Origin: a bacterium
Lineage (GTDB): Bacteria; UBA10199; 2-02-FULL-44-16; DYJF01
Length of the DNA: 64,000 bases
Direction: 5' to 3'
Assembly: GCA_041739675.1 (NCBI GenBank)
Contig: JBGSNL010000069.1
Span: 11,592-75,591 of the forward strand
Positions 3 to 38,366 of this stretch are shown here, piece after piece. The position numbers and the translations under genes were made by a program. How positions within the stretch are numbered: the first letter of the stretch is position 1; each line of letters opens with the position of its first letter. Below the pieces are notes generated by a model. It did not search any database, was not told where the DNA came from, and saw only the letters and a program-made list of their open reading frames with translations.

Positions 3-1052
3 GTGCAGGAGATGAGTGCAAGGATGGGTGCGGTCACGGGCAAGGGACTGGCCGATCTTATACGCGAAAATTTCGGCGCGAAGATCGCGTTTTATGCGAT
101 GAGCGCACTTCTCTTCTCGAATATCGGCAACACGGTCTCCGAGTTCTCGGGCGTGGCGGCGAGCCTCGAGATATTCGGAATTTCAAAATACATAAGCGTT
201 CCCATAGCGGCGCTTCTGGTGTGGCTCCTTGTCGTGAAGGGCAATTTCAAAACCGTTGAAAAAGTGTTTCTGGTTCTTTGTCTTTTTTATTTTTCTTACG
301 TGGTGTCGGGTTTCTTCGCAAAACCGGACTGGAACGAAGTCGCTCTTCGAATGGTCGAGCCTAAATTCAGGTTCGACCCCAAATATCTCTACATGCTCGT
401 CGGTATAATAGGAACGACGATCGCGCCGTGGCAGCTTTTTTTCATGCAGTCCTCCGTTGTGGAGAAAGGAATCGGTGTCGAGAACCTGAAACATTCGCGG
501 TTTGATTCTCTCATCGGTTGTATAATGGCAGGCGTGGTCATTTTCTTCATCATTGTCGCATGCGCCGCCACCATCCACCCCGCGGGGATAAAGATAAAAA
601 CCGCAGCCGACGCCGCGCTGGCTTTGGAACCGCTCGCGGGCACTCATTTCAAGATTCTTTTTTCGTTCGGCCTTTTGAACGCCTCCCTTTTTGCCGCCGT
701 TGTGCTTCCGCTTTCGGTTGCATATTACGTCTGCGAAGGCCTGGGCTTCGAGGCCGGTATCAACAAAAAATTCTCGGAGGCGCCGCAGTTTTACACGATC
801 TTCACCGCCACCATAATTATCGGCATGGGTCTTGTTTTGATCCCGGCCTTTCCTCTCTTCAAGATGATGGTGTTGACGCAGGTGGTGAACGGAGTCGTGT
901 TGCCGTTCATGCTCATCTTCATGGTGCGGCTTATCAATCGCAATGAAATCATGTGCGGATTCACAAATGGAAAGATCTGGAACTTCGTTTCATGGTTCAC
1001 GATCGCTGCGGTGATTGCGCTGACAATTCTCATGTTCGGCGAATTTTTCTAG
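3..1052 (+). CDS. mntH: Nramp-family divalent metal (Mn2+/Fe2+) transporter, 5'-truncated at window edge
   Basis: 349-aa ORF with multiple TM segments and Nramp-like motifs (GPGFLMSIAFIDPGN-type region missing because N-terminus is off-window; C-terminal TM6-11 pattern MQSSVVEKG, hydrophobic helices); ORF runs to window start so partial. Confidence 0.8.
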   Translation: MQEMSARMGAVTGKGLADLIRENFGAKIAFYAMSALLFSNIGNTVSEFSGVAASLEIFGISKYISVPIAALLVWLLVVKGNFKTVEKVFLVLCLFYFSYVVSGFFAKPDWNEVALRMVEPKFRFDPKYLYMLVGIIGTTIAPWQLFFMQSSVVEKGIGVENLKHSRFDSLIGCIMAGVVIFFIIVACAATIHPAGIKIKTAADAALALEPLAGTHFKILFSFGLLNASLFAAVVLPLSVAYYVCEGLGFEAGINKKFSEAPQFYTIFTATIIIGMGLVLIPAFPLFKMMVLTQVVNGVVLPFMLIFMVRLINRNEIMCGFTNGKIWNFVSWFTIAAVIALTILMFGEFF

Positions 1053-1208
1053 GAAAGCATCCTTCCCAATAACCGGATTTAGGGGCTTTCAGGGCCCCAA
1101 GAGGCGCCAATATCGGTATTTGGCTCGCAGAAAACCATTATCCCCTTGAATATCAGTGGGATATAGGCTAGAGAGATGCGCTATGGGGGGAGGGGAAGGA
1201 AGGAAAAA

Positions 1209-2465
1209 ATGATCGCAGCAGGCGGGGACGACTCTGTTCGCGGAGCTTCAAATTCCGACCATGCAACGCAGTACATCATTCCAAGATTGTTATCTGAAGA
1301 TCCCACGTTAACTCAATCAATTCTAGATTATTTTGTGAGCGGTTCGGCTGCCCCGGCTTACGGCCAAGGTTTGCTTCAACTCGTCACCGAACCCGTCCGG
1401 TTTACCGGATATGCATTCATGCCGGATTTGTTCGGTCTTGTCCCGCGCGTGAATGTGAAACCTGAGGTGTATGCGGATTTTCAGAGAATGGATTCATACA
1501 GCGGCTCCGCAATTTATGTCAAAACGGACGTCGAGGGAAAAGTTGTCATCGGAGGAAGGCTTGGCGATCTTGCATCTTTTTTGAATGCCGCCATCGGCAA
1601 ACCCGGTGTCTGGTCCCCGGGTATGCTGGCAAGCATGATAAGGGGAAACAGCCGCCCTTCGCTTCTCGCGGACCGCACATTCGGTGACGGCGAGCTCGTG
1701 TTCATTCCAATGTACAATTACGCGGCACGTCTGTATCAGGTCACAATATCTCCAGATCATGATTTGAATTTTCCCGCAGATTTCATGTGGTATCGTTTTC
1801 ACGCCGCAATGAAATTTTTTATGGCAAGGAGCTTGTACGATATCGAAGAGTCCACCAATGACGTGACTTATCTTGGAATCATCAATGCCTTTCACAGCGC
1901 CATGCAGGATATCCAGAGCGGACAGGCAAAGCGCGTGGAAAGGTTTCTCAACACCAGCACTTTGCTGAGAGCTTTTGCTCCAGACGATATGATTGGTATC
2001 GTCGGCGCGGGAGTGAGGCTCAATCCCGAAGGCAAGGTGATGCAGTTGACGCTCAGGGTCGGCGGTCTTGAAAATGAAGCACTGTGGACAGGCATCTTGG
2101 GCCGCAATGGAAAAACAATCTACTGGCATGTGGAAAATTCCAGGCCGGAAAATGTTACCAGGCGGTCGCAGAGAGCGTTTGTTGAAAACGATATTGCGCC
2201 CCTCTTCCACCGTTCCATCAGGAATGTCTATTCAGGAGATTATCCCTCACGGCAGGGTTCGTCCGTTACGGGGACATTTGAAACCGGCGAAACGTCGGGG
2301 CCGCACGGAGGCAGATCCCTGCGCCAGTATTGGTCTCTTCCGTTCGCAGGGTATGTGGGCCGGCGCGCGTTGGTTTCGGGGGTCAGACGCGTGAGATCGG
2401 CGGCGAGTGTCGTGCGTCAAAATATCGTGAATATAGTGAGACCTCAGGCGGTCAAAGTGCGGTAG
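1209..2465 (+). CDS. hypothetical protein, member A of a 4-gene tandem paralog family (conserved Arg/Ala-rich C-terminal module)
   Basis: ORF 1176..2465; start chosen at ATG 1209 preceded by GGAGGGGAAGGAAGG purine-rich RBS; C-terminal ~60 aa (..VTG.FETGETSG..GRRALVSGVRRVRSAASVVRQNIVNIVRPQAVKVR) alignable with C-termini of the next three ORFs. Confidence 0.55.
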   Translation: MIAAGGDDSVRGASNSDHATQYIIPRLLSEDPTLTQSILDYFVSGSAAPAYGQGLLQLVTEPVRFTGYAFMPDLFGLVPRVNVKPEVYADFQRMDSYSGSAIYVKTDVEGKVVIGGRLGDLASFLNAAIGKPGVWSPGMLASMIRGNSRPSLLADRTFGDGELVFIPMYNYAARLYQVTISPDHDLNFPADFMWYRFHAAMKFFMARSLYDIEESTNDVTYLGIINAFHSAMQDIQSGQAKRVERFLNTSTLLRAFAPDDMIGIVGAGVRLNPEGKVMQLTLRVGGLENEALWTGILGRNGKTIYWHVENSRPENVTRRSQRAFVENDIAPLFHRSIRNVYSGDYPSRQGSSVTGTFETGETSGPHGGRSLRQYWSLPFAGYVGRRALVSGVRRVRSAASVVRQNIVNIVRPQAVKVR

Positions 2466-2501
2466 TTGCAATAGGGTGGCGGGGGAAGAACGGAGGCGGC
2501 T

Positions 2502-3947
2502 ATGGCATCAGGAGGTGATGGCGATAGCGGAAGAATCGGTAGCGATCCACCGGTACCTGATCTCCCTGCTCTGGATTTCAGCGATGACGAGGAGACCAAT
2601 TCGGGAGTCGATAAGCGCAGAGGCGCTGGCCAGAGTGATAGAGCCGATTCATATGTTGATGTACGATCTCCCATCGACCCGGGTTCGCGAATCGAAGTCT
2701 CGCCGGCCCCGCTTCCAAGCCCTTATGAGACGCATCTCAGGCACGCGATAAGACGGCTCGTCGGAACGCCCAGCAACGGTCCGGGGAGAGAAAGCTCATA
2801 TGTGCCGGGACTCAATCTCTTGCCTTCCGGAAACAATGCGATGGTGTTTGCTGCATATGTCGCGCGTGACAACGGAAATCTGTATCGAATCGCAGGTTAT
2901 ATCTACGATGCCGTCATTTTGCTTGATGACATTCTGCGGAGCTTCGACGGCGTCGAGCGTGCCTACAGATATTACTCTCCGGCAACTATCGCGAGAGATC
3001 TGGAGCTGACCAACGCAGGCGAAGAGTCCGGCGAGTTCACAAATGGGGCCAAGACGGCGACTGTGAAATGGAGACGTTTTTTTGATACGGCCTTTTATCA
3101 GTTTGAACTTCGCTTCTCTCCCGCGAGATCCGAAGCGGATTTGAGGCCGGTCATTGACCGTTTCGCCGCGCTTGAAACGTTCGAGATAATGGAAACCACG
3201 GAATCGCCGGTGAGCTTGGCAAACATCCGAAGAAAGCTGGGACATCTTTTAAAAATTGCCAATGCCGGCGATATATTGGGTATGCTTGGCCGTGAGAAAT
3301 CAGTAAGTGATTTGACGAACGTTGGAGCCCCAAGGAATTCCGGTCCTTTTGTCAGAGATGTAGATGTCGGGATAGGGATAAAAGGCCGCGGAGTGGACTC
3401 CGTTGAACTTTCCATAAATCAGGGTGATGCAGACGACGACATCAGAACGTTTGCTTCAACGAACGTGTCAAAGTGGAGCCTCAGGCGTCTCACTGACGGA
3501 AGAAGGGGTTTCAGAGTTACCATTTCTGATACGGATCCGCATGCGAAGAACGCCGATTGGAGATCCCCCGTATCGCTGCCTTTGAGGCGGTTCGTGCGCG
3601 ACATATGGGGTGAAGGGGTCGTCCTCGTGAACGCCGACATGGAGGAAGTGCCCATTGACGGCAGCGGCGGCACGAGCATGCCGCCTGCGGAAACTGGCGG
3701 CGGCGGGGGCGCACAGGGAGCGGTCGGAGGCGGTGAAAACTCCCTATCGGTTATCGGCACCTTTGATGCGGCGGAAGTTTCCACTTATGCCGGCATGTTT
3801 TATGGGACTCATCGGCTGCGTCGTCACGAGCGGGTCGCAGGTGCCCGCGCACTTGCATCGGGGCTAAGAATGGTAAGGCGGACCGCGAGGATCGCTCCAC
3901 AAGGTGTGGTGGTGGCTGCGAGATCGGCTTTGGTAAGAACACTGTAA
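2502..3947 (+). CDS. hypothetical protein, member B of tandem paralog family (Gly-rich linker + conserved Arg/Ala-rich C-terminal module)
   Basis: ATG at 2502 preceded by GGAGG (spacing ~5); clearly paralogous to 3963..5426 (ESGEF..FY.F....., SP.SL.N..R.L..LL, F(V/I)R(D/N)VDVGI.IK blocks); poly-Gly tract (ETGGGGGAQGAVGGGEN) then C-terminal HRLRRHERVAGARALASGLRMVRRTARIAPQGVVVAARSALVRTL. Confidence 0.6.
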   Translation: MASGGDGDSGRIGSDPPVPDLPALDFSDDEETNSGVDKRRGAGQSDRADSYVDVRSPIDPGSRIEVSPAPLPSPYETHLRHAIRRLVGTPSNGPGRESSYVPGLNLLPSGNNAMVFAAYVARDNGNLYRIAGYIYDAVILLDDILRSFDGVERAYRYYSPATIARDLELTNAGEESGEFTNGAKTATVKWRRFFDTAFYQFELRFSPARSEADLRPVIDRFAALETFEIMETTESPVSLANIRRKLGHLLKIANAGDILGMLGREKSVSDLTNVGAPRNSGPFVRDVDVGIGIKGRGVDSVELSINQGDADDDIRTFASTNVSKWSLRRLTDGRRGFRVTISDTDPHAKNADWRSPVSLPLRRFVRDIWGEGVVLVNADMEEVPIDGSGGTSMPPAETGGGGGAQGAVGGGENSLSVIGTFDAAEVSTYAGMFYGTHRLRRHERVAGARALASGLRMVRRTARIAPQGVVVAARSALVRTL

Positions 3948-3962
3948 AAATAGGAGGAAGAC

Positions 3963-5426
3963 ATGCGAGCAGGAGGAGACGGACCAGATGCTGTGAGAAA
4001 CGGAACTTCGGAACCTGTAGTGCCGGCAGTTCCGGCGAAGATAAATCCGGAAGGAGAGATTAACCCTCCTTCGACTGTGGGGCTTTTGCATTTCACGGAA
4101 GCGCCGGTGGACTCGATGTACAGGCCGCCACGTTTGACCCCTCTACTTTCCCATGCCGAACGCGGTCTGGAGCGTCTTTTCGGAATGAGTTCCGGCGGTA
4201 ATGAGGAAGGCGACGTCTTTGCCGGCGAGTTTAAACCCGTTGCCGGACCAAATGGTTCAACATGGTATTATGCATTTGCCGATAACAAAACGGTGACGGT
4301 GACCGGATATCTTCAGGAAGTGGTCGGCCCGCTTCATCATCTGATGTTGTTGGGGGCGAGCCCGGAGGATCTGACAGTTTACACCTCCCCAGCCACGGTT
4401 GTGAGACATTTCGACTGGGAGGAATCTGACAATGAATCCGGCGAATTTGCCAGCGCGTCGGGGAACGTGAGGGTGGGCTGGAGCCGCGACCTTGAAACGG
4501 ATTTTTACAGGTTCGATATTCAATATGCGCGTTCGCCGTCGAGGACGGCGTTGGAGTCCGCGATCGGGAGCTTGGCCGATCTAATAGAGCACGAATTGAC
4601 GGAGGTCTTCGCTTCTCCGTTCAGCCTTGGCAACATGAGCAGAATGCTTGAACGGCTGCTTCGCGAGGCCAAAGATACACAGATAGTCGGGATGATGAAG
4701 ATGATCATGGCCGACATCGATCCCAAAGACGTGGCGGCGTGGCATGCAGCCATTCACGAGCGCCCGAGCGGAATCGCTGAGACGAGAAACATCAACGACG
4801 GCTTGGCAGAGGATTCGGATCTTTTTATCAGAAACGTAGACGTGGGGATAAGGATCAAAGAGGGTCTGGTCTCTTCGGTAGTTTGGGCGCTGAACTTTGG
4901 CAAAGGCGTGTTGAGGGTGATCGCTTCTCCGCGCCCCGATATGAATGGTCTTCTCTGGCAGAGGGAGACTGTCCCGTTTGGGCGTCAACTGGACGAGAAC
5001 TGGGTTCAGGCTGCATTCGAAAGATTCAAGGGCTTTGCCGTCGGTCTGTTTAGAGACGGCCTCAAACAGTCGAATGTCGCCGACATAAACGCGTCGGGGG
5101 TCATGCGCGGTAACGGCGGCGGTGGAAGTGTTCCGCCCGCAGCGGAAAACGGCGGCGGGGAAGGCGGCGGTGCTGGCGGCGCAAATCCTCCTTCAGGAAC
5201 TCCGCCAACGCAGGAAGGAAAACCCACTGTCACGGGTCTTTACTATCCAGAGGAGACCGAGGCTTTTTCGGACGGCTTTGGAAACAATTTCCATTATCGT
5301 CATGGTCACGACCGCATCGGCGCACGTGCGCGCGCTGCTGCTTTGAGAACTGTTCAGCCGGGAAGGGCGATACAGCGGCCGATTGCTGCTCCCATCGCGC
5401 GGTCGGCATTGATGATCACAATGTAG
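3963..5426 (+). CDS. hypothetical protein, member C of tandem paralog family
   Basis: ATG at 3963 preceded by AGGAGGA; paralogous to member B over most of length; Gly/Pro-rich linker (GNGGGGSVPPAAENGGGEGGGAGGANPPSGTPPTQEG) then TVTGLYYPEETEAF...RIGARARAAALRTVQPGRAIQRPIAAPIARSALMITM. Confidence 0.6.
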   Translation: MRAGGDGPDAVRNGTSEPVVPAVPAKINPEGEINPPSTVGLLHFTEAPVDSMYRPPRLTPLLSHAERGLERLFGMSSGGNEEGDVFAGEFKPVAGPNGSTWYYAFADNKTVTVTGYLQEVVGPLHHLMLLGASPEDLTVYTSPATVVRHFDWEESDNESGEFASASGNVRVGWSRDLETDFYRFDIQYARSPSRTALESAIGSLADLIEHELTEVFASPFSLGNMSRMLERLLREAKDTQIVGMMKMIMADIDPKDVAAWHAAIHERPSGIAETRNINDGLAEDSDLFIRNVDVGIRIKEGLVSSVVWALNFGKGVLRVIASPRPDMNGLLWQRETVPFGRQLDENWVQAAFERFKGFAVGLFRDGLKQSNVADINASGVMRGNGGGGSVPPAAENGGGEGGGAGGANPPSGTPPTQEGKPTVTGLYYPEETEAFSDGFGNNFHYRHGHDRIGARARAAALRTVQPGRAIQRPIAAPIARSALMITM

Positions 5427-5435
5427 AGACACGAA

Positions 5436-6842
5436 ATGGGCACAGTTGATAAATTATTCATGTCGCTCTGGAATCTTGCGCTCAATCCATGGTCCTTGCT
5501 GGGCGAGCAAGGTGTAGCCAGGCTCGTGGATGACGACAAGCCCCCGCGCGCTCCGGAGATTCCGGTGGGAAGTGCCGTTTCTCGCCCCAGTGACGGGCCG
5601 CCGCTTTCTTACGCGCCTGCGGCCCGTTATTCACGCCGCCCGATTGCAAATCTTGAACGCATGTCGCCTCACGAAAGAGACGGTCTTCTGAAATATCTCT
5701 TCGGAATAGTCGATGACGCGCTTCAAAGGCCAGGCGGCCGGGCCGAAGCCGATCTTGTTCACTATCAAATGAGTGACGACGATCTGTCGGGGGTGGCAAA
5801 TCAGATTCAGGAGTATTTCCCCATTTTGTTCGATATGACTCACGTCGAAAGTCCGGATGAATTTGCCCGATTCGTGAGAATGTATTTCGGCCGCGCCTCA
5901 GAGCGCATTTCGCAGATCCTTGATAAGAACACATCCGATGCGATTAGGGATGCGGTGACCTACAGAAGGGAGAGCTTCTGGGGGCCAGAGACGTACATGC
6001 GGCGCATCCTTGATAAGAAAGCGATGAGAAACTGGGATGGGGACCCCCGCGTTATGGTGGTCGGCCAATACATGACTGACAGATGGAACGATCTTGCGCG
6101 TCTTGAAGACGTCAGGGGACTGGAAAAAGTCTGGACGGATGCCGATATCAAAAGGGTCCAGTCGATACGGGTCTTTGGGAATCTCTCTTTCAGAATTCGT
6201 GCCAGGACGTTGAAAATTGTTTTTCCCCATGCCCTTGTTGCGACGATGGAGGGAATCGACATCGGCGTGGATATCGAAAAGCACTTTTTTTACAGAAAAG
6301 ATCTGGATACCGAATCGGTCGACAATATATGGGACAGGCTCGCCACAATTTCGCGCAGGTATCACCGCACTGAGGGGAACGATCGCCACATCACGATAAC
6401 GTGGAATCCTGAAAGATACGTCCTCCTCATGGAAGACAATGGAGCCGGCATTGGAAACTTGAGCAACTCGCCGGATTTCATATCGGTCGAGGAGAGCTTG
6501 GAAAGACTTGGATGGACAATGAATATATATTCAAGACTGAACGACGGTACAACATTCACGATCCATCCCAAGAGTGGCGACATTATTACCGAAGAGCAGT
6601 TCGATCCCAGCCTTCAAAATGAGGGGCGCGGAAGCGTAACCGGACTTGCCGATCCCGGAGAGACAAGCGGTGCATCAGGGGTTGTGGGAAGAAGCGGCCT
6701 ATTTTTGGCCGGCGCGCATAGATACATATCGGTTCGGCGCGGGCATTACTTAATGCCTGCACGTTCCATGCGGACAGCAGGGTTTAGAGCCGCAGGAATC
6801 GCTCCCGCCGTTGCAGTTTCCAAAGTCGCAACCGCCTTTTGA
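5436..6842 (+). CDS. hypothetical protein, member D of tandem paralog family, with GHKL/HATPase_c-like ATPase domain
   Basis: 468-aa ORF; internal region ...GNDRHITITWNPERYVLLMEDNGAGIGNL....LERLGWTMNIYSRLNDGTTFTI matches the G1 (DxGxG) and G2 boxes of histidine-kinase/GHKL ATPases; C-terminus (SVTGLADPGETSG...ARSMRTAGFRAAGIAPAVAVSKVATAF) shares the family C-terminal module; start codon not certain (weak RBS). Confidence 0.55.
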   Translation: MGTVDKLFMSLWNLALNPWSLLGEQGVARLVDDDKPPRAPEIPVGSAVSRPSDGPPLSYAPAARYSRRPIANLERMSPHERDGLLKYLFGIVDDALQRPGGRAEADLVHYQMSDDDLSGVANQIQEYFPILFDMTHVESPDEFARFVRMYFGRASERISQILDKNTSDAIRDAVTYRRESFWGPETYMRRILDKKAMRNWDGDPRVMVVGQYMTDRWNDLARLEDVRGLEKVWTDADIKRVQSIRVFGNLSFRIRARTLKIVFPHALVATMEGIDIGVDIEKHFFYRKDLDTESVDNIWDRLATISRRYHRTEGNDRHITITWNPERYVLLMEDNGAGIGNLSNSPDFISVEESLERLGWTMNIYSRLNDGTTFTIHPKSGDIITEEQFDPSLQNEGRGSVTGLADPGETSGASGVVGRSGLFLAGAHRYISVRRGHYLMPARSMRTAGFRAAGIAPAVAVSKVATAF

Positions 6843-6854
6843 ACCTTTATTTCC

Positions 6855-7487
6855 TCAATCCAATATGTGTGAAAAGATCACGAACGCGAGCTCGTCCTTC
6901 GGAAGTTCGGGCAGCACGATGCGCTTTCCCTCCTTTGAAAAAAGGATCGCGTGGCCGCGCTCTTTGCCGATCACAGTGTGACGATTGGCGACGATCCAGT
7001 CGCACTTTTTCTCTTTCAATTTTCTTCGTGCGTAGGTTTCAAGATTTTTGGTTTCAACTGCGAAGCCTATGAGTAGTTGATCCTTTCGTTTCTTTTTTCC
7101 GAGTTCGGCCAAGATATCGGGATTTTTCTTCAGGGAGAGAACAAGTTGGTCGGACCGCGAGAACATTTTTTTAATCTTCTGTTTTGAAAAGTGTGCCGTT
7201 TTGAAATCAGAAACCGCCGCGGCCATGACGATGATATCCGCTTTCGCCTGCCGCTTCATGACCTCGCGGTGCATATCGTCGGCTGAAATCACGTCTACTC
7301 GTTTTACGCCGGAAGGAGCGGCGATTCCGACCGGCCCAGATATAAGCGTGACGTTTGCTCCGAGCTTTCTCGCCGCTGCGGCGAGCGAAAAGCCCATTAT
7401 TCCGGAAGAATCGTTCGAGAGATAGCGCACGGGATCCAGATATTCCCGCGTAGGCCCGGCCGTTATAAGGACGTTCAAGTTTTTCAT
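6855..7487 (-). CDS. coaB: phosphopantothenate-cysteine ligase (CoaB domain), separate gene
   Basis: MKNLNVLITAGPTREYLDPVRYLSNDSSG..AVSDF motifs typical of the C-terminal half of Dfp/CoaBC; start ATG overlaps upstream stop (ATGA). Confidence 0.8.
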   Translation of the reverse strand: MKNLNVLITAGPTREYLDPVRYLSNDSSGIMGFSLAAAARKLGANVTLISGPVGIAAPSGVKRVDVISADDMHREVMKRQAKADIIVMAAAVSDFKTAHFSKQKIKKMFSRSDQLVLSLKKNPDILAELGKKKRKDQLLIGFAVETKNLETYARRKLKEKKCDWIVANRHTVIGKERGHAILFSKEGKRIVLPELPKDELAFVIFSHILD

Positions 7488-8035
7488 TTCTTCAATATCC
7501 GTTCAAGGACCTTCATTATATCGGCCGGTTCGGGGAGCCTTCCTTTTCCCTGATAGCCGCAGGCAAGATCGCCCATCGCCGGTTCTATAAAATGGTAGCC
7601 CAGCTTTTTGAGTTTTTTCACATTTTCTTTTGTGATCGGATTTTCCCACATGTGCACGTTCATGGACGGCGCGAAAACCACCGGCGCCTTCGTGGCGCAG
7701 ACGACCGTTTGCAAAAGCTCGTCGCATATTCCGCAGGCCACCTTCGCTATGAAGTCCGCGCTGGCCGGCGCGACAAGAACGAGGTTTGCCTTATCGGCGA
7801 GTGATATATGTCCGATCTCCCCCTCCTGAATGAGGCTGAACATGTCGGTGTGGACCGGATTTTGGGACAACGCCTGAAGCGTCAGAGGGGTCACAAACTG
7901 GGCGCCGGCTTTTGTGAGGATGACATGGACATCCGCGCCCGCCTTCACAAGAGACCTCACGAGGTCACAACATTTATATGCCGCGATGCCGCCCGTTATT
8001 CCGAAAATGACGATCTTCTTTTCAAACGGCTTCAT
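7484..8035 (-). CDS. coaC: phosphopantothenoylcysteine decarboxylase flavoprotein (CoaC domain), separate gene
   Basis: MKPFEKKIVIFGITGGIAAYK..PASADFIAK..KAPVVFAPSMN flavoprotein motifs; start at ATG 8035 preceded by GGAGGTAAT; the longer ORF to 8284 has no RBS and is not supported. Confidence 0.8.
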   Translation of the reverse strand: MKPFEKKIVIFGITGGIAAYKCCDLVRSLVKAGADVHVILTKAGAQFVTPLTLQALSQNPVHTDMFSLIQEGEIGHISLADKANLVLVAPASADFIAKVACGICDELLQTVVCATKAPVVFAPSMNVHMWENPITKENVKKLKKLGYHFIEPAMGDLACGYQGKGRLPEPADIMKVLERILKK

Positions 8036-8096
8036 ATTACCTCCATGACAAAACGGGAACATAGTGGTATTGAAAAATAGAAGCAAGGGGGGATTT

Positions 8097-8654
8097 ATGG
8101 AGCAAATGCTTACCGATGAGGAACAGAAAATCCTTTTGAAACTGGCGCGCGATACGATTGAAATGTGGGTGAAAGAGCAGGCGAGGCCTCCTCTTCCTTC
8201 TGCCAAGGGGATTATGGGAGAAAAATGCGGCGCCTTTGTGACTATCCACAAAAAGGGGCAGCTCAGGGGGTGCATCGGCAACATGGTGGGCCACGCTCCT
8301 CTTGTGGAGACGATCCAGGAGATGGCAATCGCATCTTCAACCGGCGATCCGCGTTTTCACCCGGTGAACAGAGAGGAACTCAAAGAAATCGATATCGAGA
8401 TATCGGTCCTGTCCCCGCTCAGGGAGATAAAAGACGTGGGTGAAATTGAAGTCGGCAGACACGGCATACTGATGAGCCGCGGAATGTACCACGGCGTTTT
8501 GCTCCCTCAGGTTGCGACCGAATACGGCTGGGACCGCACGACCTTCCTTCAGCACACCTGCATGAAAGCCGGTCTCCCCGAAAACGCCTGGCAGGATCCT
8601 ACGACCAGAATCGAAATATTTTCCGCCCAAATCTTCGGAGAAAAGAAGAAATAA
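8097..8654 (+). CDS. AMMECR1 domain protein
   Basis: ..GAFVTIHKKGQLRGCIGN..PRF.PV..EEL..I.IEISVLSPL.. canonical AMMECR1 motifs; ATG 8097 preceded by AAGGGGGGA. Confidence 0.75.
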   Translation: MEQMLTDEEQKILLKLARDTIEMWVKEQARPPLPSAKGIMGEKCGAFVTIHKKGQLRGCIGNMVGHAPLVETIQEMAIASSTGDPRFHPVNREELKEIDIEISVLSPLREIKDVGEIEVGRHGILMSRGMYHGVLLPQVATEYGWDRTTFLQHTCMKAGLPENAWQDPTTRIEIFSAQIFGEKKK

Positions 8655-8690
8655 AAAATCGCCGGCTTTATTTGAAAGCCGGCGATTTTA
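8653..8690. terminator. bidirectional intrinsic terminator between convergent genes
   Basis: AAAAAATCGCCGGCTTT-atttg-AAAGCCGGCGATTTT: 13-bp GC-rich stem flanked by A-run and T-run. Confidence 0.55.
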
Positions 8691-8710
8691 TTCAATTACT
8701 TTTGGATGCG

Positions 8711-9343
8711 TTATGCTCCGAAGTTCTTTTTGAACTGCTGAAAATTGTGAAGAACCTTCTGAACGTACTTGCGTGTTTCCGGATAGGGCGGAACTGAACC
8801 GAAACGCTTCACTGCTCCAGGGCCGGCGTTGTACGACGCGATTGCGAGCGTCAAGTTACCGCGGAACTGATCCAGGAGCGAACGGATATATTTCGTGCCT
8901 GCGCGGATATTCTCATGGGGGTCGCTGAGATTGTAAACTTTGAGCTCATGCGCTGTGGCCGGCATAACCTGCATCAAACCGCGCGCTCCAACCGGTGAAA
9001 CGGCATTGGGCCTGAAATCCGACTCGGCCTTGATGACCGCCGCGACGAGCGCCGCGGGAACGTTATATTCCTTCGCCAGCGATACGATCGAAGCCTGATA
9101 TTTCACAAAACCGGTCTGTTCCTTCTTGATCAGCTCAATGAGTCCGAAAAAGCGCGGCGCAAAGAGGACATAAACAAAGAAGATTGCCGCGAGGGTGAAT
9201 ATCTTGTTGCGCTTGCGTGGCAGATAAATGATCTCGGTCACGAAGTCGTGCTCGGACCTGTTGCTGTTGCGCTTTGAAGTCTGAGCTATTTCTCTCGACT
9301 CATCGGCACTCGGAAACGGTATTTTTAATGTTGGTTTCATCAT
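8711..9343 (-). CDS. lytic transglycosylase (SLT domain) with N-terminal membrane anchor
   Basis: AESDFRPNAVSPVGARGLMQVMPATA...AIASYNAGPGAV - catalytic E-S and AYNAG motifs of family-1 lytic transglycosylases. Confidence 0.8.
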   Translation of the reverse strand: MMKPTLKIPFPSADESREIAQTSKRNSNRSEHDFVTEIIYLPRKRNKIFTLAAIFFVYVLFAPRFFGLIELIKKEQTGFVKYQASIVSLAKEYNVPAALVAAVIKAESDFRPNAVSPVGARGLMQVMPATAHELKVYNLSDPHENIRAGTKYIRSLLDQFRGNLTLAIASYNAGPGAVKRFGSVPPYPETRKYVQKVLHNFQQFKKNFGA

Positions 9344-9512: not shown

Positions 9513-10346
9513 ATGAACTTTAAACCTCTTAAAATTATTTGGGTTTTAGCTGTAGTCACGTTCCTCCTTGCCGGCTGTGCCAAGGACGTCATTACGGGTA
9601 AAACCACCCTTAACTATTATAAAGTCGAAAACGAGCCCAAGCTTGGCGAACAGGTCCTCGTCTATCAGGCCAAGGCCCTGAAAAATGAGAAAAAGGAGTT
9701 GGATCCCGAAAAGGACGCCAAGGAGCTCGAACGCCTCAAAAGAATTGTCAGAAATATCAGCGCCGTTTCCCACTATCCAAACTTTCCCTACGAGGTCCAC
9801 ATTGCCGACGTTGATATTGTGAACGCATGGTGCGCCCCCGGCGGAAAAATCATGGTATATGAAGGACTTTGGGATCCAAAAAAGGGTCTTGTGGAAAAAG
9901 ACAACGACGACGAGTTGGCCGCGGTTCTGGCGCACGAAATTGCGCACGCGAACGCGAGGCATGTGACCGAGACGATCAGCGCAAATATGACGATCATGAT
10001 GGTGGGCGCCGCGGTTTCCACCGCCATAGCGGCGGGCGGATATCAGGAGGGGAGCAACTTGTTCGGCGAGGTGTTTTCCCAGGGCATGAATCTTTATCTT
10101 CCGAGCTATTCCAGAAAAAACGAATTCGAGGCGGACCATATCGGTCTGGCGTACATGGCGATGGCCGGCTACGATCCGCGCGTGGCAGTCGAATTGTGGA
10201 AAAAGGCGGCGCAGAAGAAGAAGGATTTTTCGTCCATCTATGCGTCGCATCCTTCAAGCGGAGCCCGCGCAAAATATCTGGAAACTCTTTTGCCGAAAGT
10301 CATGCCGCTATATGAACAGGCTAAAAGAGAGGGTAAACCCAACTAA
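9513..10346 (+). CDS. M48-family zinc metallopeptidase lipoprotein (BepA/YcaL-like)
   Basis: Signal peptide + lipobox (LLAGCAK); HEIAHANARH (HExxH) and downstream EFEADHIGL motif typical of peptidase M48; ATG 9513 preceded by GGGGAGAG. Confidence 0.8.
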   Translation: MNFKPLKIIWVLAVVTFLLAGCAKDVITGKTTLNYYKVENEPKLGEQVLVYQAKALKNEKKELDPEKDAKELERLKRIVRNISAVSHYPNFPYEVHIADVDIVNAWCAPGGKIMVYEGLWDPKKGLVEKDNDDELAAVLAHEIAHANARHVTETISANMTIMMVGAAVSTAIAAGGYQEGSNLFGEVFSQGMNLYLPSYSRKNEFEADHIGLAYMAMAGYDPRVAVELWKKAAQKKKDFSSIYASHPSSGARAKYLETLLPKVMPLYEQAKREGKPN

Positions 10347-13300
10347 GTTCTTTTCTTCCTTCTATTTCTGATTTTGGAAACGGAGTTAGATACCATTACA
10401 TATCCGGACTCCCCGTATCTCCTCACAAGTTTTGGGATGAATGAGAACTTCTCCTTCAGCTGCCCCACCCAGCGCGGTATCCACACAGTCTGAGCGTCGT
10501 CAAAAATGGAATAGAAAACCGGCGTCAAAAGCAGCGTGACCAGAAGGCACAAAGATTGCCCGCCGATGATCACGACCGCCATCGGAGAGCGTGAGGAAGA
10601 TCCAGGGCCCCTCGACAGAGCGACGGGAATCATGCTCGCGATGAGCACGAACGTTGTCATTAGGATGGGACGGAGCCTCGTCCGTGAAGCCTCCACGAGA
10701 GCGACGTCTCTTGGCTCTCCGCGCGATCGCAGCGTGTTGGTGTAGTCGACTTGAAGAATGGCATTTTTCTTAACGATGCCGATGAGAAGGAAGAGGCCCA
10801 GAATCGATATGATGTGGAGCGTTTGATGCGTGATCAGAAGCGAAAATATCGCAAACGGAAAAGCGAGCGGCAGAGAAGCGAGAATCGTCACCGGATGCAG
10901 CCAGCTTTCAAAGAGCGAAGCCAGAATCATGTACATAAAAATGACCGAGAGCAAGAACGCCATCGTGAAGCTTGATTGCATCTCCGCCATATACTTGGAA
11001 TGGCCCACGAACTGGAATTCGTAACCGGGCTCGACGTTCATCTTCTTTGCCTCGTCCAGCACAAATTGCTTCGCTTCGCTCTGGGCCATATTTTCAAGAT
11101 TGGCGTCGATCTCTATGGAACGCTGGCGTTGGTAGCGGTCGATCTGGGAAGGGCCGGTCGTCTCCTCGAATGTCGCTATCGAATCCAGGCGAACGAGTCC
11201 TGTGGGCATGTGTTCTTTACTGGATGGGATCGGAAGCTGGAAGAGATCTGTGGGCCGGCTCCTGAACTTGTCTTGCAGGCGGATGCGTACCTCGTAGAGT
11301 TCGTCTGCCACCTTATATTTGGTGATGTCCAGTTCCCCGGAGACCAAAAGCTGCATCGTGCGGGCGATATCGTCAGCCGTCACGCCGAGGTCCGCCGCAC
11401 GTTGTCTGTCGATATTAATGCGCACCTCAGGCTTGCCGAAGACGAGCGACGTATCAACGTCGACAAAACCCTTTTGCTTTCTCATGGCGGCGGTAAGCTG
11501 ATCGGCATACAGTTTGAGCTTGTCTAGATCCGGGCCGGTGAGGCGTGACTGGAATTCCGCTTCGCCGCCGCCGGCGCCGCCCGTGAACTGCACGCTGGTG
11601 CGCAACGTCGGATAATCCTTGAGCATCATGCGCGCATCGTTCATGACGTCGACCTGGGAATAACTTCTTTTTTTGAGGTCGCTTATCTTGACGAAAATGT
11701 CGCCTTCATTGACCTTCTGGTTGTCGCCGCCGCCGATAGAAGTGAGCAGATGCTCTACCCCTCTGATTTTTCGAAGGCCCGATTCAATGCCATATGCGAT
11801 TTTGTCCATCTCGGCGATCGACGTCCCCTCCGGAGCCTTTACGTGGATGTTGAACTCGCTCCTGTCGTCTTTCGGTATGAAGTCTTTGCCGACGAGAAAC
11901 AGCGACGGTATGGAGCTCAGCATTATTACGATCGCCGCTATTACCGCCGTTTTGCGGTGGACAAGAACCCATTTGAGCATCCGCGTGTAATATTTGTCGA
12001 CATAGCGGTTGATGAGCGTGTCGCGCGATGTCTTCTCAACATGCGGTTTGATCTTGAGGAAACGCGAGCACATCATGGGAGTGAGGACGAACGCAACGAC
12101 CAGGGAGACGCCGATTGTGAACGCCATCGTCAGGCCGAAGCTGAACATGAACCGGCCGATGACGCCGTACATGAAAGCCAGAGGCACGAAGATGACCATG
12201 AGCGACAGCGTTGTGGAGACGACGGCGAGCGCTATTTCGTCGAGCCCCTTTGAGGCGGCAGAGAAGGGCTGCTCCTTCTTTTCTTCCAGATGGCGAAATA
12301 TGTTTTCAAAGACGATGATCGCGTCATCGATCACGATGCCGTTGGCAAGCGACAAGGCGAGAAGCGTCAGGTTGTTGAGCGTGAAACCCAGCATCTTCAT
12401 CAAGGTGAAGGTTGAGATGAGAGACACGGGAATAGACACGGCGCAGATTATCATGCCTCGGAAGTTTCTTATGAAGAGAAGCACCGTGAGCGACACCAGA
12501 ATGGCGCCGAGGATCAGGTCCTCCTCAAGCGAGTGGACGGCAGCCATTATGAAGATCGATTGATCCTGAACGATTTCCGCCTTTACGCCTGGAGGAAGCG
12601 TTTGCCTTATTTCGGAGAGCTTTTTGGCCACCGCCCTGGCGACGTCTACGGTGTTGGCATCAGATTGCTTTCTTATGGAAATGTTGATTGCGGATATGTC
12701 ATCGAAGCGCGAGAAGCTGCGCATCACTTCGTCCACATCCTCGACATCCGCCACGTCGCGGATGAGCACCGGCGTGTTGCCGAACGTGTCGACCGGGATC
12801 GCCCCGAAATCCTTAGAGTCGACGATCTTTCCCATCGTGCGGACCACTATTTCGCGCGGCTCTTCGGTCAGATAGCCGCCGGGAAGCTCGATGTTCTGCT
12901 TTTGAAGGGCGGTCTGTATGTCGAAGATGGACAGCCCGTATCCGGCCAGCTTTGCCGGATCGATCCGTATGTGAATCTCACGCTCGCGCGCCCCGATCAT
13001 CCTGATATCGCCGACGCCGTCGACCGTCTCTAAAATCTCCTTCACGCGTTTGCGCGTGATCTTTGTCAGATCGCGCATGGGCATGTTGGCGCTGACCACG
13101 ATCTGCACGATGGGGCTGCCGGAGAAATCGAATTTTTCGATGACGGGCTGCTTCGTTCCCTCAGGCAGATCGTTGATGACCCGGTTCACGCGGTCTCTCA
13201 CGTCCTGCGCGGCAATGTCGGAGTTCTTGTCCAGCACGAACTGCGCCCAGATGATCGAGCGTCCTTCGAAGGAAAACGACTGCAGCTCGTCCAACCCGGA

Positions 13301-13522
13301 GATCGTGTTGATCGATTCCTCAAGTTTTTTTGTGACCTCGGTTTCGATCTCCTCCGGAGAGGCGCCTAAAAGATCGGTTCTCACCGAAACGATCGGAAAA
13401 TCGATTTTGGGGAAAAGGTCGACGCCCAATCTCAAGAAAGAAAAAAAGCCCAGAACCACCATGGCCATGATGATCATGGTGGCAAATATCGGGCGCCTGA
13501 TGAATGTATCTACTGATTTCAT
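10343..13522 (-). CDS. RND (AcrB/HAE1-type) efflux transporter inner-membrane pump
   Basis: 1059 aa, 12-TM RND architecture, N-terminus MKSVDTFIRRPIFATMIIMAMVVLG and conserved ..FLAGYYV../..ILLLALIPLALGTGAGAE.. like blocks. Confidence 0.9.
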   Translation of the reverse strand: MKSVDTFIRRPIFATMIIMAMVVLGFFSFLRLGVDLFPKIDFPIVSVRTDLLGASPEEIETEVTKKLEESINTISGLDELQSFSFEGRSIIWAQFVLDKNSDIAAQDVRDRVNRVINDLPEGTKQPVIEKFDFSGSPIVQIVVSANMPMRDLTKITRKRVKEILETVDGVGDIRMIGAREREIHIRIDPAKLAGYGLSIFDIQTALQKQNIELPGGYLTEEPREIVVRTMGKIVDSKDFGAIPVDTFGNTPVLIRDVADVEDVDEVMRSFSRFDDISAINISIRKQSDANTVDVARAVAKKLSEIRQTLPPGVKAEIVQDQSIFIMAAVHSLEEDLILGAILVSLTVLLFIRNFRGMIICAVSIPVSLISTFTLMKMLGFTLNNLTLLALSLANGIVIDDAIIVFENIFRHLEEKKEQPFSAASKGLDEIALAVVSTTLSLMVIFVPLAFMYGVIGRFMFSFGLTMAFTIGVSLVVAFVLTPMMCSRFLKIKPHVEKTSRDTLINRYVDKYYTRMLKWVLVHRKTAVIAAIVIMLSSIPSLFLVGKDFIPKDDRSEFNIHVKAPEGTSIAEMDKIAYGIESGLRKIRGVEHLLTSIGGGDNQKVNEGDIFVKISDLKKRSYSQVDVMNDARMMLKDYPTLRTSVQFTGGAGGGEAEFQSRLTGPDLDKLKLYADQLTAAMRKQKGFVDVDTSLVFGKPEVRINIDRQRAADLGVTADDIARTMQLLVSGELDITKYKVADELYEVRIRLQDKFRSRPTDLFQLPIPSSKEHMPTGLVRLDSIATFEETTGPSQIDRYQRQRSIEIDANLENMAQSEAKQFVLDEAKKMNVEPGYEFQFVGHSKYMAEMQSSFTMAFLLSVIFMYMILASLFESWLHPVTILASLPLAFPFAIFSLLITHQTLHIISILGLFLLIGIVKKNAILQVDYTNTLRSRGEPRDVALVEASRTRLRPILMTTFVLIASMIPVALSRGPGSSSRSPMAVVIIGGQSLCLLVTLLLTPVFYSIFDDAQTVWIPRWVGQLKEKFSFIPKLVRRYGESGYVMVSNSVSKIRNRRKKRT

Positions 13523-14397
13523 TTTTTCACTATGACGGCCTCGCCGTCTTTCAGATCAATTAGACTGCCGACGGCCAGAGTGTCGTTTTCGGCGGTGCCT
13601 TCCGCTACCTCGACGTGCGTGTCGTTGCGCATGCCTATTTTTATCTCGGCGCGGTGCACTTTGTCGTCTGCAACCTTATAGACGAACTGTTTTTCCCCTT
13701 CCCACGATACAGCATTGAACGGCACGATGAGCACGCCGTCTTTCCGTTCGACTACCAGATTCAGCCTGCCGAACATACCGTGGCGGAGGCGCCCGTCGGT
13801 GTTGGGAATTTCGACTTCGACATTTGCCGTCCTTGTCTTCTCGTTGACGACGGGGCTTGAGGTTATGATCGTTCCCGTGTAGCCGTCGCCGTCAAGGGAA
13901 TCCACCTTCATCGTCACTTCCGTTCCCGGGAGTATCACGCCTAGATAGCGCTCGGGAATATCGAGCTTCACGCGCATAACGCCCGGCCGCACTACTACGG
14001 CCACGGGTTGTTCCGAGAACACCGTGCGGTCATACACAAAGGTTCCCACGTCGACCAATATGGAACCCACATAACCGTCGATGGGAGAGTCGACGACCAT
14101 CGGTTTGAATGTGTAGCCGATGTCGTCACGGTCGATGAGCATGATCCCCTGGCCCTTCTTAACCGGATCGCCTTCCTTCAAGAGTTTTTTGGTAACGCGT
14201 CCGTTGCCGCGCGGGAAGACGTTCACAGTATCTTTGGCCACGATGTTGCCCGTGAACAGGACCTTTTGTTCGATTGTGCCTCTTTCCACCTTCGCCGTTT
14301 CTATCTCCTGCGGTGCGGTTACGACCTTGCCCTTCCCGCAGGATATTGCTGCGAGCGCAACGAGCAGCGGCAATATTCCCAATTTTTGAATTTTCAC
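13519..14397 (-). CDS. RND efflux periplasmic adaptor (membrane fusion protein, HlyD family)
   Basis: Lipoprotein-like N-terminus (AAISCGKG), beta-barrel/lipoyl/alpha-hairpin MFP pattern; overlaps RND start by 4 nt (operon). Confidence 0.85.
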   Translation of the reverse strand: MKIQKLGILPLLVALAAISCGKGKVVTAPQEIETAKVERGTIEQKVLFTGNIVAKDTVNVFPRGNGRVTKKLLKEGDPVKKGQGIMLIDRDDIGYTFKPMVVDSPIDGYVGSILVDVGTFVYDRTVFSEQPVAVVVRPGVMRVKLDIPERYLGVILPGTEVTMKVDSLDGDGYTGTIITSSPVVNEKTRTANVEVEIPNTDGRLRHGMFGRLNLVVERKDGVLIVPFNAVSWEGEKQFVYKVADDKVHRAEIKIGMRNDTHVEVAEGTAENDTLAVGSLIDLKDGEAVIVKK

Positions 14398-15710
14398 ATC
14401 GCACCTCCTATAGCCTTTTCAAGCACCGCCTCGGCGGCAAGGCATTCGTACAAAGCCTGCAAGTAAAGTTGCTCCGCCTGCGCCTGCGAATTGATCGTAT
14501 CGTTGAGTTCAAGCTGGCTCATGAGTCCGGCCCCAAATCGTTCGCTTGCGATGGCCGTCGCTTTTTTCGCCAGATTGAAAGAGCCGAGCTGTGTCCTGTA
14601 AGCGGCCTGCGCTTTGTCCAGCGATATGACGGCGTCCTCCACCTCGCGCACGATGGAATCTTCGAGCTGGGAATTCGTGACGCGCTGCTGGAGAAGTTTA
14701 GCCTTCGCCTGCTCCACGCGCGATTTGGTCTTGAGCCCGTCGAAGATGGGCCACGACATCTGGATCATGCTGTACAAATTGTCAGCTGTTTCGTTGCCCG
14801 AAAGACTCCAGTTGTCGGTCAGTCCCTGCCACTGATATGTCGTGTTGAACGTGAACTGCGGCCAGTAACCTGATTTTTCCGCGCCGACGCCGTGCTCCAG
14901 CGATTTCTCGCGGAGCCTTTGCGCGTTGAGATCGGGTCTTGTGGCCCTTGCTTTTTCGATCATCGCCTTCGCATCGGGGAGTTGTTTCGGCTCGAAGGCC
15001 AGAGAACCCGAGACCTCGATCGGCTCCTGCGGATCGACCGCCATCAGAACCTTGAGTCCGTTGAGTAATAGCTCGTGCACGCGCTGCGCCTCCAGAAGTT
15101 GCGGTTCGACGTTCGTGACCTCAACCTGCTGGCGCATCAGCGTGTAATCGCTGTCCAGACCCTTTCCGAATCTCGTCTGGATCGCCCTCAAATGTTCTTT
15201 GAGCTGGGCAAGCTGCATCTTCAGCACTTCGATCACCTTTTCGGTGTAGATGATCTGGTAGAAAGTTTGTTTTACGGCGAGGCGAATCTGTGCCTCGACG
15301 TCCTTGATGTTCCATACGGCGCTCTGGCGCTCCGTCTTTGCCGCCTTGATGGCCTTCAAAACTTTGCCGCCGTCCCAGAGGAGCTGATTCACTTCGGCAC
15401 CGGCCAGGTATGTGTTATCTGAGCCGACATTGAAGACCTGGTTGTTGATGAACATCTTCGGCTTGCGCCACGTGCGTTCGTATGATGCGGTGCCGGTCAG
15501 CTGGGGCAGGCCCATCGCACGGGCTTCTCCTATCAGCCCCTCAACTTCCGCAAGACGCTCTTTTGCGGCCGCGATGTCGCGGTTGGCGGTCTGCGCCCGC
15601 TCGAGCGCCTCGTTCAGCGTGACTTTCCGAACCTGGGCGTCCGCGCAAACCGGTGCCAAAGTTATAGAAACGACTGAAGCGATTCCCAGAATGTAACGAA
15701 AAAGGATCAT
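14394..15710 (-). CDS. TolC-like outer membrane efflux protein
   Basis: Signal peptide (ITLAPVCADA), two repeats of coiled-coil/beta OEP pattern; first gene of TolC-MFP-RND operon. Confidence 0.85.
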   Translation of the reverse strand: MILFRYILGIASVVSITLAPVCADAQVRKVTLNEALERAQTANRDIAAAKERLAEVEGLIGEARAMGLPQLTGTASYERTWRKPKMFINNQVFNVGSDNTYLAGAEVNQLLWDGGKVLKAIKAAKTERQSAVWNIKDVEAQIRLAVKQTFYQIIYTEKVIEVLKMQLAQLKEHLRAIQTRFGKGLDSDYTLMRQQVEVTNVEPQLLEAQRVHELLLNGLKVLMAVDPQEPIEVSGSLAFEPKQLPDAKAMIEKARATRPDLNAQRLREKSLEHGVGAEKSGYWPQFTFNTTYQWQGLTDNWSLSGNETADNLYSMIQMSWPIFDGLKTKSRVEQAKAKLLQQRVTNSQLEDSIVREVEDAVISLDKAQAAYRTQLGSFNLAKKATAIASERFGAGLMSQLELNDTINSQAQAEQLYLQALYECLAAEAVLEKAIGGAM

Positions 15711-26240: not shown

Positions 26241-26392
26241 CGCCTATCTTATTCTTCCTTTGAATCCTGCGAAGTGGTATAAGAAAGAAAAGGCAGGGTA
26301 TTCTTATGCGGAGTTTATCCTGTGGAGTCCAAATACGGACCGTCGCATCGTGAATGATGCGCGCGTCCGTTTTTTTCTTAAAAGGAGAAAAT

Positions 26393-27421: not shown

Positions 27422-27435
27422 TTTGCGCAAGACTA

Positions 27436-27468
27436 AAAAAACCCCCTCCGTGGGAAGGGGAGGGGGGA
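27436..27468 (-). terminator. intrinsic terminator of the minus-strand beta-helix gene
   Basis: On minus-strand RNA: CCCCCCUCCCC-uucccac-GGAGGGGG followed by UUUUUUU. Confidence 0.6.
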
Positions 27469-27478
27469 AGGGACGTTT

Positions 27479-27505
27479 GTCATTCTGAACGAAGTGAAGA
27501 ATCCC
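27479..27505. repeat. 27-nt box motif GTCATTCTGAACGAAGTGAAGAATCCC (solo arm; second copy of the opp intercistronic hairpin arm)
   Basis: 25/27 identical to 53729-53755 (GTCATTCTGAGCGAAGCGAAGAATCCC). Confidence 0.45.
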
Positions 27506-27507
27506 GG

Positions 27508-38333: not shown

Positions 38334-38366
38334 TCAGTTAGCCGATGGGGCACCAAAGGAACTGCT

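Follow-up and report, generated by a model that had tools for sequence, protein, structure and literature searches.

Several bacterial protein-sorting systems, including the sortase, exosortase, rhombosortase, type IX secretion (T9SS) and myxosortase systems, were first recognised through shared C-terminal tags on unrelated proteins. The published hallmark of a sorting system not yet described is a set of paralogous, lineage-specific C-terminal domains carried by proteins with no other relationship (PMC3237569). The LPXTG, PEP-CTERM, GlyGly-CTERM and MYXO-CTERM domains always occur with an N-terminal signal peptide and a true transmembrane (TM) helix. Substrates of type I secretion systems (T1SS) have an uncleaved C-terminal signal of ~60 residues, an acidic isoelectric point (pI) and no cysteines; in T1SS-secreted S-layer proteins the C-terminal signal is accompanied by a region for anchoring at the N-terminus, and rtx loci usually carry their own ABC/MFP genes (PMC3034196). 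Here we analyse four consecutive genes, A to D, in a 64,000-nucleotide stretch of contig JBGSNL010000069.1 (positions 11,592 to 75,591; GTDB lineage UBA10199), hereafter the window, together with sister loci labelled L002 to L090. Our findings firmly support an operon whose orphan products have in common a genuine, modular domain at the C-terminus. Our preferred reading, held at somewhat less than even confidence, is that the proteins may be addressed or docked through this module as a common tag, which would most plausibly signal Sec-independent export or surface assembly.

The four open reading frames (ORFs) follow one another on the forward strand at 1176-2465, 2502-3947, 3963-5426 and 5436-6842 and encode 429, 481, 487 and 468 aa, with gaps of 36, 15 and 9 nt between A and B, B and C, and C and D; the tight same-strand array reported in the initial annotation is thus reproduced exactly in coordinates and lengths. 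Gene A, an A-type orphan body member, probably starts at M12 of its longest ORF (1209..2465, 418 aa), where a GGAGG-type ribosome-binding site (RBS), ggaggggaaggaagg, lies 5' of the ATG at nt 1209 and the resulting product begins with the N-terminal motif of the family (MIAAGGD). Genes B (2502..3947) and C (3963..5426) encode B/C-type body members that begin MASGGDG and MRAGGDG, respectively. Gene D (5436..6842) carries the same C-terminal module on a different body family, with the homologues L2_2 and L3_5. GC content and GC skew across the array are slightly above those of the flanks; promoter and terminator scans of the array gave chance-level signals only, and an Rfam search of the locus found no family.

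The module is real and specific. Homology of the tails of all four ORFs, originally proposed by inspection, is significant both in pairwise BLAST of the 75-residue tails (A-B, E 4e-7; C-D, 8e-5; A-D, 6e-4; B-C, 3e-3) and in a leave-one-out test, in which a hidden Markov model (HMM) built from three tails was run against the window in six frames (652 segments). The held-out tail was always the top non-training match (A 3.4e-5, B 6.5e-8, C 6.9e-4, D 9.8e-3), all remaining segments scoring at E > 0.2, and no further ORF of the 64-kb window was found to carry the tail. The module occupies the extreme C-terminus, is ~70 residues long and follows a flexible linker. Direct reading of the sequence bears out the Gly/Pro-rich linkers annotated in B (aa 386-411, nt 3657..3734, with a low predicted local distance difference test score, pLDDT) and in C (aa 381-417, nt 5103..5213).

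An alignment of modules from the window, L002 and L085, covering three loci and four body types, defines two motifs. Motif 1, [V/I/L]-[T/G]-G-[aromatic/L]-x3-[G/A/E]-E-x-[T/S], has its G and E invariant in this alignment; motif 2, hydrophobic-x-G-A-[R/Q]-[A/T]-x-x-x-G, lies ~25-30 residues past motif 1 and has a near-invariant G, and a short basic/hydrophobic stretch closes the module. As a consensus for the operon, motif 1 can be written [V/I]-[T/G]-G-x-x-x-x-(G/E)-E-x-[T/S] and motif 2 hydrophobic-x-G-A-R-A-x-x-x-G-x-R. In A the module spans 2241..2462, with motif 1 (VTGTFETGETS) at nt 2265-2297 and motif 2 (VGRRALVSGVRRV) at nt 2355-2393 ahead of the basic/hydrophobic end. The B module (3735..3944) has VIGTFDAAEVS at nt 3750-3782 and VAGARALASGLRMV at nt 3834-3875, and the C module (5214..5423) has VTGLYYPEETE at nt 5229-5261 and IGARARAAALRTV at nt 5316-5354. 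The D module (6630..6839) carries VTGLADPGETS at nt 6636-6668 and LMPARSMRTAGFRA at nt 6750-6791, and the protein ends in ...KVATAF.

When the HMM of this alignment was run against 445 kb, the only extra match was weak (E 0.16) and corresponded to a partial tail at the start of L002; against PDB chains it gave no match. The full-length proteins and ten isolated modules likewise matched none of the curated sorting-domain models of NCBIfam at E up to 1, in agreement with the earlier remark that no known signal motif fits the tail: no curated C-terminal sorting-domain model or motif matches it. In structure predictions with AlphaFold2 (AF2), the tail of A has pLDDT < 50, that of B is modelled as long helices at low confidence, and disorder is predicted for the termini of both models. 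The helical hydrophobic moment of the tails is not above that of composition-matched shuffles (z <= 1.8), and a reading of the tails as amphipathic helices was rejected on this ground.

Turning to the bodies, B and C are 28% identical over 332 aa (E 6e-25), as expected from their reported alignability, and the blocks quoted for them (ESGEF, SP.SL and F[VI]R[DN]VDVGI.IK) are confirmed in the alignments. B is 51% identical to P0002 (L002) and 34-39% identical to P0003 (L003), while C shares 33% identity with L3_2 over 499 aa. BLAST links join A to B and C (A-L3_3, E 3e-21; L3_1-L3_2, E 1e-18), L3_2 matches B and C at E 2e-62 and 1e-74, and hhalign of the A group against the B/C group gives 98.6% (E 8.5e-16, 274 columns). 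By these comparisons, A, B and C are divergent paralogues of one body family. D is 32% identical to L2_2 of L002 (E 6e-64) and matches L3_5 of L003 (E 7e-13), and hhalign of the D family against the A/B/C family gives 0.4%; its body belongs to a second family, unrelated to the first. The initial annotation of four paralogous proteins therefore stands for A, B and C and not for D.

None of the bodies could be assigned to a family before, and this assessment remains correct. Searches of Pfam, NCBIfam, PHROGs and PADLOC with A-D, distant members and the other tail-bearing bodies returned nothing significant, and PDB gave no match in sequence and profile searches that used D and its family, the C-domain of D, and the A/B/C body family. 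An AF2 model of A, built from a 17-sequence alignment, has an alpha/beta core at residues ~80-345 (pLDDT 80-95), with the first ~78 and last ~73 residues at low confidence. The A/B/C body is accordingly described as an orphan alpha/beta domain of ~260 residues preceded by a disordered N-terminal region. Foldseek of this confident model against PDB gave a TM-score on the query of at most 0.18, and a fold search against the BFVD viral library gave nothing. Two members are tandem fusions of two body domains with one tail (L003 2767-4929, 720 aa; L085 1118-3466, 782 aa), which indicates that the body is a duplicable unit. Residues 309-378 of D have a sub-threshold HATPase_c match (14.3 bits, cut-off 26.4; spIIAB E 0.12). 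A GHKL/HATPase_c identity for D was rejected, because the EDNGAGIG of D is replaced by EDDKMSVR at the same position in L2_2; a PDB profile search with D found no GHKL protein.

The initial annotation proposed to check whether the C-terminal module marks a wider family; it is found in sister loci on at least four unrelated bodies: those of A/B/C, of D, of a 530-aa protein in L004, and of a 493-aa protein in L085 together with a partial one of 324 aa. For instance, three body-family genes of L004 and the unrelated 530-aa protein carry a common acidic/aromatic tail; the gene of the latter lies 5 kb from the array, with MoeA, an HMGL-like and a VWA gene in between. Similarly, one tail occurs on four consecutive genes of L085 (E 4e-14 to 5e-16 in BLAST of the tails alone), two of which have bodies outside both families, and D-like genes with the module are present in L002 and L003. 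The family is extremely rare. A word-indexed search of 5.8 billion proteins returned the query and two relatives only, and a profile search run exhaustively over 1.84 billion cluster representatives returned 16 proteins at E <= 1e-3, one of them seemingly spurious. No relatives were found in 185,579 species-representative genomes, nor in viral contigs, phage records or plasmids. The host, too, is without a close representative, as its IleRS reaches at best 56-57% identity, to MAGs of Thermodesulfobacteriota, Nitrospirota and 'Deltaproteobacteria'.

The composition of the four proteins resembles that of exported proteins. A-D contain no Cys in 1,854 residues, where ~24 would be expected from the average of ten neighbouring proteins (1.28%); Cys makes up ~0.14% of the whole family, and the bodies of A-D are acidic (pI 4.9-6.1). 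No member has a canonical signal-peptide h-region or TM helix, and exported or membrane controls from the window score clearly higher. Specifically, the 10-residue Kyte-Doolittle (KD) maximum within the first 40 aa is at most 1.2 in A-C and 1.65 in D, compared with at least 2.5 in four signal-peptide or anchor controls, and the N-termini of A-D are acidic or neutral. The D-family N-termini MGTVDKLFMSLWNLALNPWSLLG (window 5436-5530) and MKVIDAAWDILQTYLPFVVAFVAG (L002 1558-1650) are moderately hydrophobic, with no basic n-region and no canonical signal peptide. In the tails of A-D, the best 19-residue KD window is 0.5-1.2, against ~2.0 or more in TM and signal controls, and basic residues are spread along the tail without a terminal cluster. 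The absence of Cys, the acidity and the lack of a signal peptide are as expected for non-classically exported proteins.

Among known systems, the closest parallels include T1SS substrates and S-layer proteins such as Caulobacter RsaA, which likewise lack a signal peptide, are acidic and cysteine-free, and carry a C-terminal module after a Gly-rich region. The N-terminal anchor and C-terminal signal of the S-layer proteins also have a formal counterpart in the N-terminal motif and C-terminal module of the A/B/C family. However, A-D lack the GGxGxDxUx repeats, no linked ABC/MFP genes were found among the genes scanned, the tails of the window and L003 are strongly basic, and the module has two motifs of its own. 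A regular-expression search for these RTX repeats over all 23 tail-bearing proteins gave one chance match, in the N-terminus of C, and the linkers are Gly/Pro/Ser-rich without a nonapeptide repeat pattern.

All 17 members of the body family begin with M-x-[A/S/P]-[G/A]-[G/A]-[D/E/Q/N], e.g. MRAGGDG, including the mis-called P0018 after start correction. The motif lies at 1209-1229, 2502-2522 and 3963-3983 of the window and at family starts in L002, L003, L004, L085, L088, L089 and L090; no start of the M-x-A-G-G-D type occurs in the D family or in the remaining tail-bearing proteins. Its codons vary among members, so the constraint acts on the peptide, and a nucleotide feature such as an internal Shine-Dalgarno sequence was rejected as its cause for the same reason. 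The motif corresponds to none of the known N-terminal signals or processing motifs.

Within a genome the tails are far more alike than the bodies, and between genomes they differ sharply. In L003, a 170-nt DNA repeat of 71-81% identity spans the tails and part of the spacer, while the bodies are 25-40% identical as proteins, and the repetition also takes in the RBS and start codon regions; L002 has a 90-nt repeat of 80% identity. The tails of L3_1 and L3_3 show a synonymous divergence (dS) of 0.40 and a ratio of nonsynonymous to synonymous divergence (dN/dS) of 0.41, and therefore point to gene conversion plus purifying selection. No DNA repeat was found over the window tails, whose similarity is thus kept at the protein level. 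As side observations, the RBS/start regions of L3_1 and L3_2 are identical, and each of the L003 tail repeats (1169-1338, 2595-2764 and 4769-4938) holds an imperfect palindrome with an 8-bp stem, CACGCCTTGGCGCAAGGCGTG, at 1253-1273, 2679-2699 and 4853-4873, which encodes ARLGARRV. Frame +2 of L002 1409-1545, the L2_1 tail read off-frame, is identical to an L003 tail at 11/20 positions (shuffle p 0.004). A frameshift origin of the Arg-rich tails from Gly/Ala-rich ones is nevertheless unsupported: this match is one pick of ~1,000 comparisons, has a DNA-level z < 1, does not reach the window tails and fails multiple-testing correction.

This pattern bears directly on whether the tail has a function at all. 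It could be a disordered, low-complexity extension whose similarity is a side effect of tandem duplication and gene conversion, as its predicted disorder, its wide compositional drift between genomes and the DNA homogenisation in L003 and L002 might suggest. We consider this very unlikely, given that the window tails are alike at the protein level with no DNA repeat, that both motifs, with their invariant G, E and G, are retained on four unrelated body types in three loci, and that the module also occurs past housekeeping genes, on the L004 gene 5 kb from the array. The dN/dS of the L003 tails indicates purifying selection, and the tail is retained in genomes with a single family copy.

The chemistry of the tails varies widely. 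In the window and L003 the tails are Arg/Ala-rich, with a net charge of +3 to +12 over the last 60 residues, whereas the acidic/aromatic tails of L004 carry -12 to -16; P0010 (L088) has a similar end with a charge of only -7. The tails of L002, P0011, P0017 and P0018 are Gly/Ala-hydrophobic, and those of L085 are polar. Some of these features would suit a membrane tether, in which a hydrophobic or cationic extreme C-terminus anchors cytoplasmic proteins to the inner membrane. The Gly/Ala-rich hydrophobic ends come near the TM range (19-residue KD of 1.57 in L2_1 and 1.55 in P0011), and cationic tails could bind anionic lipids. By eye, VAGARALASGLRMV of B aligns with IAGAMGAAGLGGAA of L2_1, so that the Arg-rich form looks like a charged version of a small-residue-rich helix. 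A tether is nonetheless quite unlikely: the hydrophobic moment does not exceed that of shuffles, no segment is as hydrophobic as the TM and signal controls, the L004-type tails are strongly negative and the L085-type tails polar, and motif 1 (G...E.T) has no obvious membrane-binding role.

A partner for the module was sought in a machinery scan that covered window ORFs of at least 200 aa and the called genes of L085, L086 and L088-L090 (21 kb of L090), with L004 covered in part; small window ORFs of ~100 aa fall outside it. The scan found no encapsulin or bacterial microcompartment (BMC) shell gene and no T1SS ABC/MFP, type IV secretion system (T4SS) or T9SS gene in the window or the related loci, and no exporter-type ABC/MFP in L004, L085, L086, L088, L089 or L090. 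Of transport genes of this general kind, the window carries only an Opp-type importer and, at 10343-15710, an RND pump together with MFP and OEP. The initial annotation had likened the divergent body, linker and shared C-terminal signal to known targeted proteins. The architecture itself is upheld by the several unrelated bodies, the covariation of tails within genomes and the properties of the proteins; the link to a known system is not, as no such machinery was found among the scanned genes and no curated model or known motif matches.

Signals of the VirB/D4-type T4SS are positively charged, and those of Dot/Icm contain an E-block. Substrates of such systems could account for the spaced Arg of the window and L003 tails, for the Glu/Asp blocks that lie 15-35 residues before the hydrophobic end in L004, and for the absence of signal peptides. 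This explanation is highly improbable, however, since the scanned genes include no T4SS component, motifs 1 and 2 are foreign to T4SS signals, and it is implausible that one orthologous family would switch between two signal classes in close genomes.

The small CTERM domains (LPXTG/sortase, PEP-CTERM/exosortase, GlyGly-CTERM/rhombosortase and MYXO-CTERM) share with the module a lineage-specific distribution, several copies per genome on unrelated proteins, and a signature motif followed by a hydrophobic and/or basic segment. Unlike proteins with these domains, A-C have neither a signal peptide nor a TM helix, and D and L2_2 have a hydrophobic N-terminal segment yet no canonical signal peptide; the module is also ~70 aa long, with a 25-30-residue spacer and a second motif, and has no NCBIfam match. 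Cellulosomal dockerins offer a parallel of another kind, with varied bodies, a linker and a common C-terminal module that docks many proteins to one partner, but they are Ca-binding, duplicated EF-hand-like folds on Sec-secreted enzymes, which the module resembles neither in sequence nor in profile. Candidates for a cohesin or a scaffoldin were not found either. T9SS cargo differs in that A-D match no C-terminal domain of the Por_Secre_tail type in NCBIfam or Pfam and have no Sec signal peptide.

Encapsulin cargo-loading peptides and BMC encapsulation peptides resemble the module in layout, as there too the bodies diverge, the Gly/Pro linker is flexible, and co-encoded proteins share a short peptide conserved at the terminus. 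They differ in that the scanned ORFs hold no shell gene, the tails have neither a known targeting consensus nor an amphipathic encapsulation helix, and the Cys depletion and fast divergence of A-D are foreign to cargo enzymes; the bodies match no enzyme family. This cargo-peptide architecture also invites a cytoplasmic explanation, namely that the tails bind each other, a scaffold or a shell to form a hetero-oligomeric complex, lattice or compartment. Homogenisation within genomes and change between them would be tolerable for homotypic tail-tail contacts, as all copies change together; A-D are tightly spaced and presumed to be co-transcribed, and the low-confidence helices modelled for the B tail would also fit. 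We regard co-assembly of this kind as unlikely. The scanned genes lack a shell or scaffold, no known cargo-peptide motif is present, and strong Cys depletion is unexpected in cytoplasmic assemblies. Moreover, Arg-rich tails (+8 to +12) would repel one another without a polyanion, the charge complementarity between body and tail in the window is missing in L004, where both are acidic, and the tail is kept in single-copy genomes.

We therefore return to the preferred reading of the module as a tag for export or surface assembly. A shared module on unrelated bodies, uniform within a genome, is how C-terminal sorting domains were recognised (PMC3237569), which favours the reading of a tag. Export or surface assembly is favoured by the lack of signal peptides and Cys, the acidic bodies, the Gly-rich linkers, the disordered ends, and the fast divergence and tandem expansion, the last two of which fit exposed or secreted proteins. 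A-D form a lineage-restricted, fast-evolving chromosomal operon, and according to this proposal their module, presumably uncleaved, may bring several unrelated, co-expressed proteins to one common partner. That partner would most plausibly be a Sec-independent export or surface-assembly route reading a C-terminal signal, as for T1SS substrates and S-layer proteins, with its machinery presumably encoded elsewhere in the genome. The recognition of the module by a machine, the exit of A-D from the cytoplasm and the kind of machine are points that we infer.

Several observations weigh against this proposal. The scanned genes of the window and related loci include no linked transporter, sortase-like enzyme or shell gene, and the only envelope system close by, an RND/MFP/OEP efflux pump of the ordinary kind, is conserved whatever the family copy number. 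A-D have no RTX repeats, the strongly basic tails of the window and L003 are atypical of T1SS signals, and a signal recognised by a conserved receptor would not usually show such swings in composition between genomes. Furthermore, the body family is single-copy at this locus in three genomes (L086, L089 and L090), and no other tail-bearing genes were seen in the DNA examined from these single-copy genomes.

The genomic setting of the array is chromosomal and conserved. Upstream lies an Nramp transporter gene (3..1052, forward strand, partial at the window start; PF01566), 80% identical to the Nramp of L090, and downstream a CoaB-like DFP gene (6855..7487, reverse strand; PF04127), which marks a boundary of the locus that the window shares with L089 and L090 and is 57-59% identical to the copies in these two. 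In L090, part of a 216-kb contig, the upstream order is MgtE, Nramp, UDG, a Na/Ala symporter, His_Phos_1 and a single family member; 3' of it follow CoaB-like, CoaC-like, AMMECR1, SLT, an M48 peptidase, an RND pump, MFP, OEP, TetR and FBA. The window has the same 3' gene order except for the TetR gene. L089 and L086 share this arrangement with one family copy, and L004 and L088 have a common neighbourhood that is different from that of the window. Flanking proteins of the window and L090 are 50-85% identical, and the family member at the same position was undetected by tblastn with A-C. From this combination of synteny and divergence, it follows that the family is vertically inherited, evolves very fast and has been tandemly expanded in some lineages, with D-type genes in addition. 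A mobile or viral origin was rejected, as there are no viral, phage or plasmid matches and chromosomal synteny speaks against it. The array does adjoin the Nramp gene, as first annotated, yet synteny shows the adjacency to be incidental: a functional link was rejected because three genes separate Nramp from the family member in L090 and the arrays of L004 and L088 sit elsewhere.

Other features of these loci were recorded alongside. A small His_Phos_1 gene lies directly upstream of the single-copy members (L086 4551-5015, L089 2457-2921, L090 9410-9874); one is also found near the family in L088 (5240-5992) and is absent from the window array, a distribution that could reflect synteny alone or a functional link. 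CoaBC occurs in the window as two reverse-strand ORFs with a 4-nt overlap, DFP/CoaB-like at 6855-7487 and Flavoprotein/CoaC-like at 7484-8284. The longest ORF of the latter has an implausible N-terminal extension of ~80 aa, and L089 and L090 have CoaBC split in the same way. A sub-threshold Rfam match to the Thr operon leader on the reverse strand (8652-8716; 32.9 bits, gathering threshold 55, E 0.004), located between the AMMECR1-like and SLT genes, is probably due to chance. Window ORFs of 250-490 aa without a Pfam match at the thresholds applied (26354-28980, 32873-33625, 37062-39546, 42372-44933 and 47767-48543) form a run among genes for TPR, Ser/Thr kinase, subtilase, TSP3-repeat and PEGA-domain proteins, and the host lineage is rich in orphan, probably envelope- or surface-related genes.

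To place these findings in context, a C-terminal tag on unrelated proteins is known as a kind, and what is new is the tag itself, the body fold, the N-terminal hexapeptide and the missing machinery. The locus thus presents a new tag on proteins without signal peptides and on a body fold without a solved relative. That the module marks an undescribed sorting system in this uncultured clade, which is related to Desulfobacterota and Nitrospirota, with an export, surface-assembly or organelle-targeting machine unlike the known secretion and sortase systems, is a possibility that we regard as doubtful. If the tag serves only as a local assembly device, it would be a lineage-specific curiosity, and the extreme rarity of the family limits its general impact. 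If the partner machinery is found, the family would reveal a new targeting or export route in a poorly known bacterial lineage and provide a clean natural case of a sorting signal co-evolving by gene conversion.

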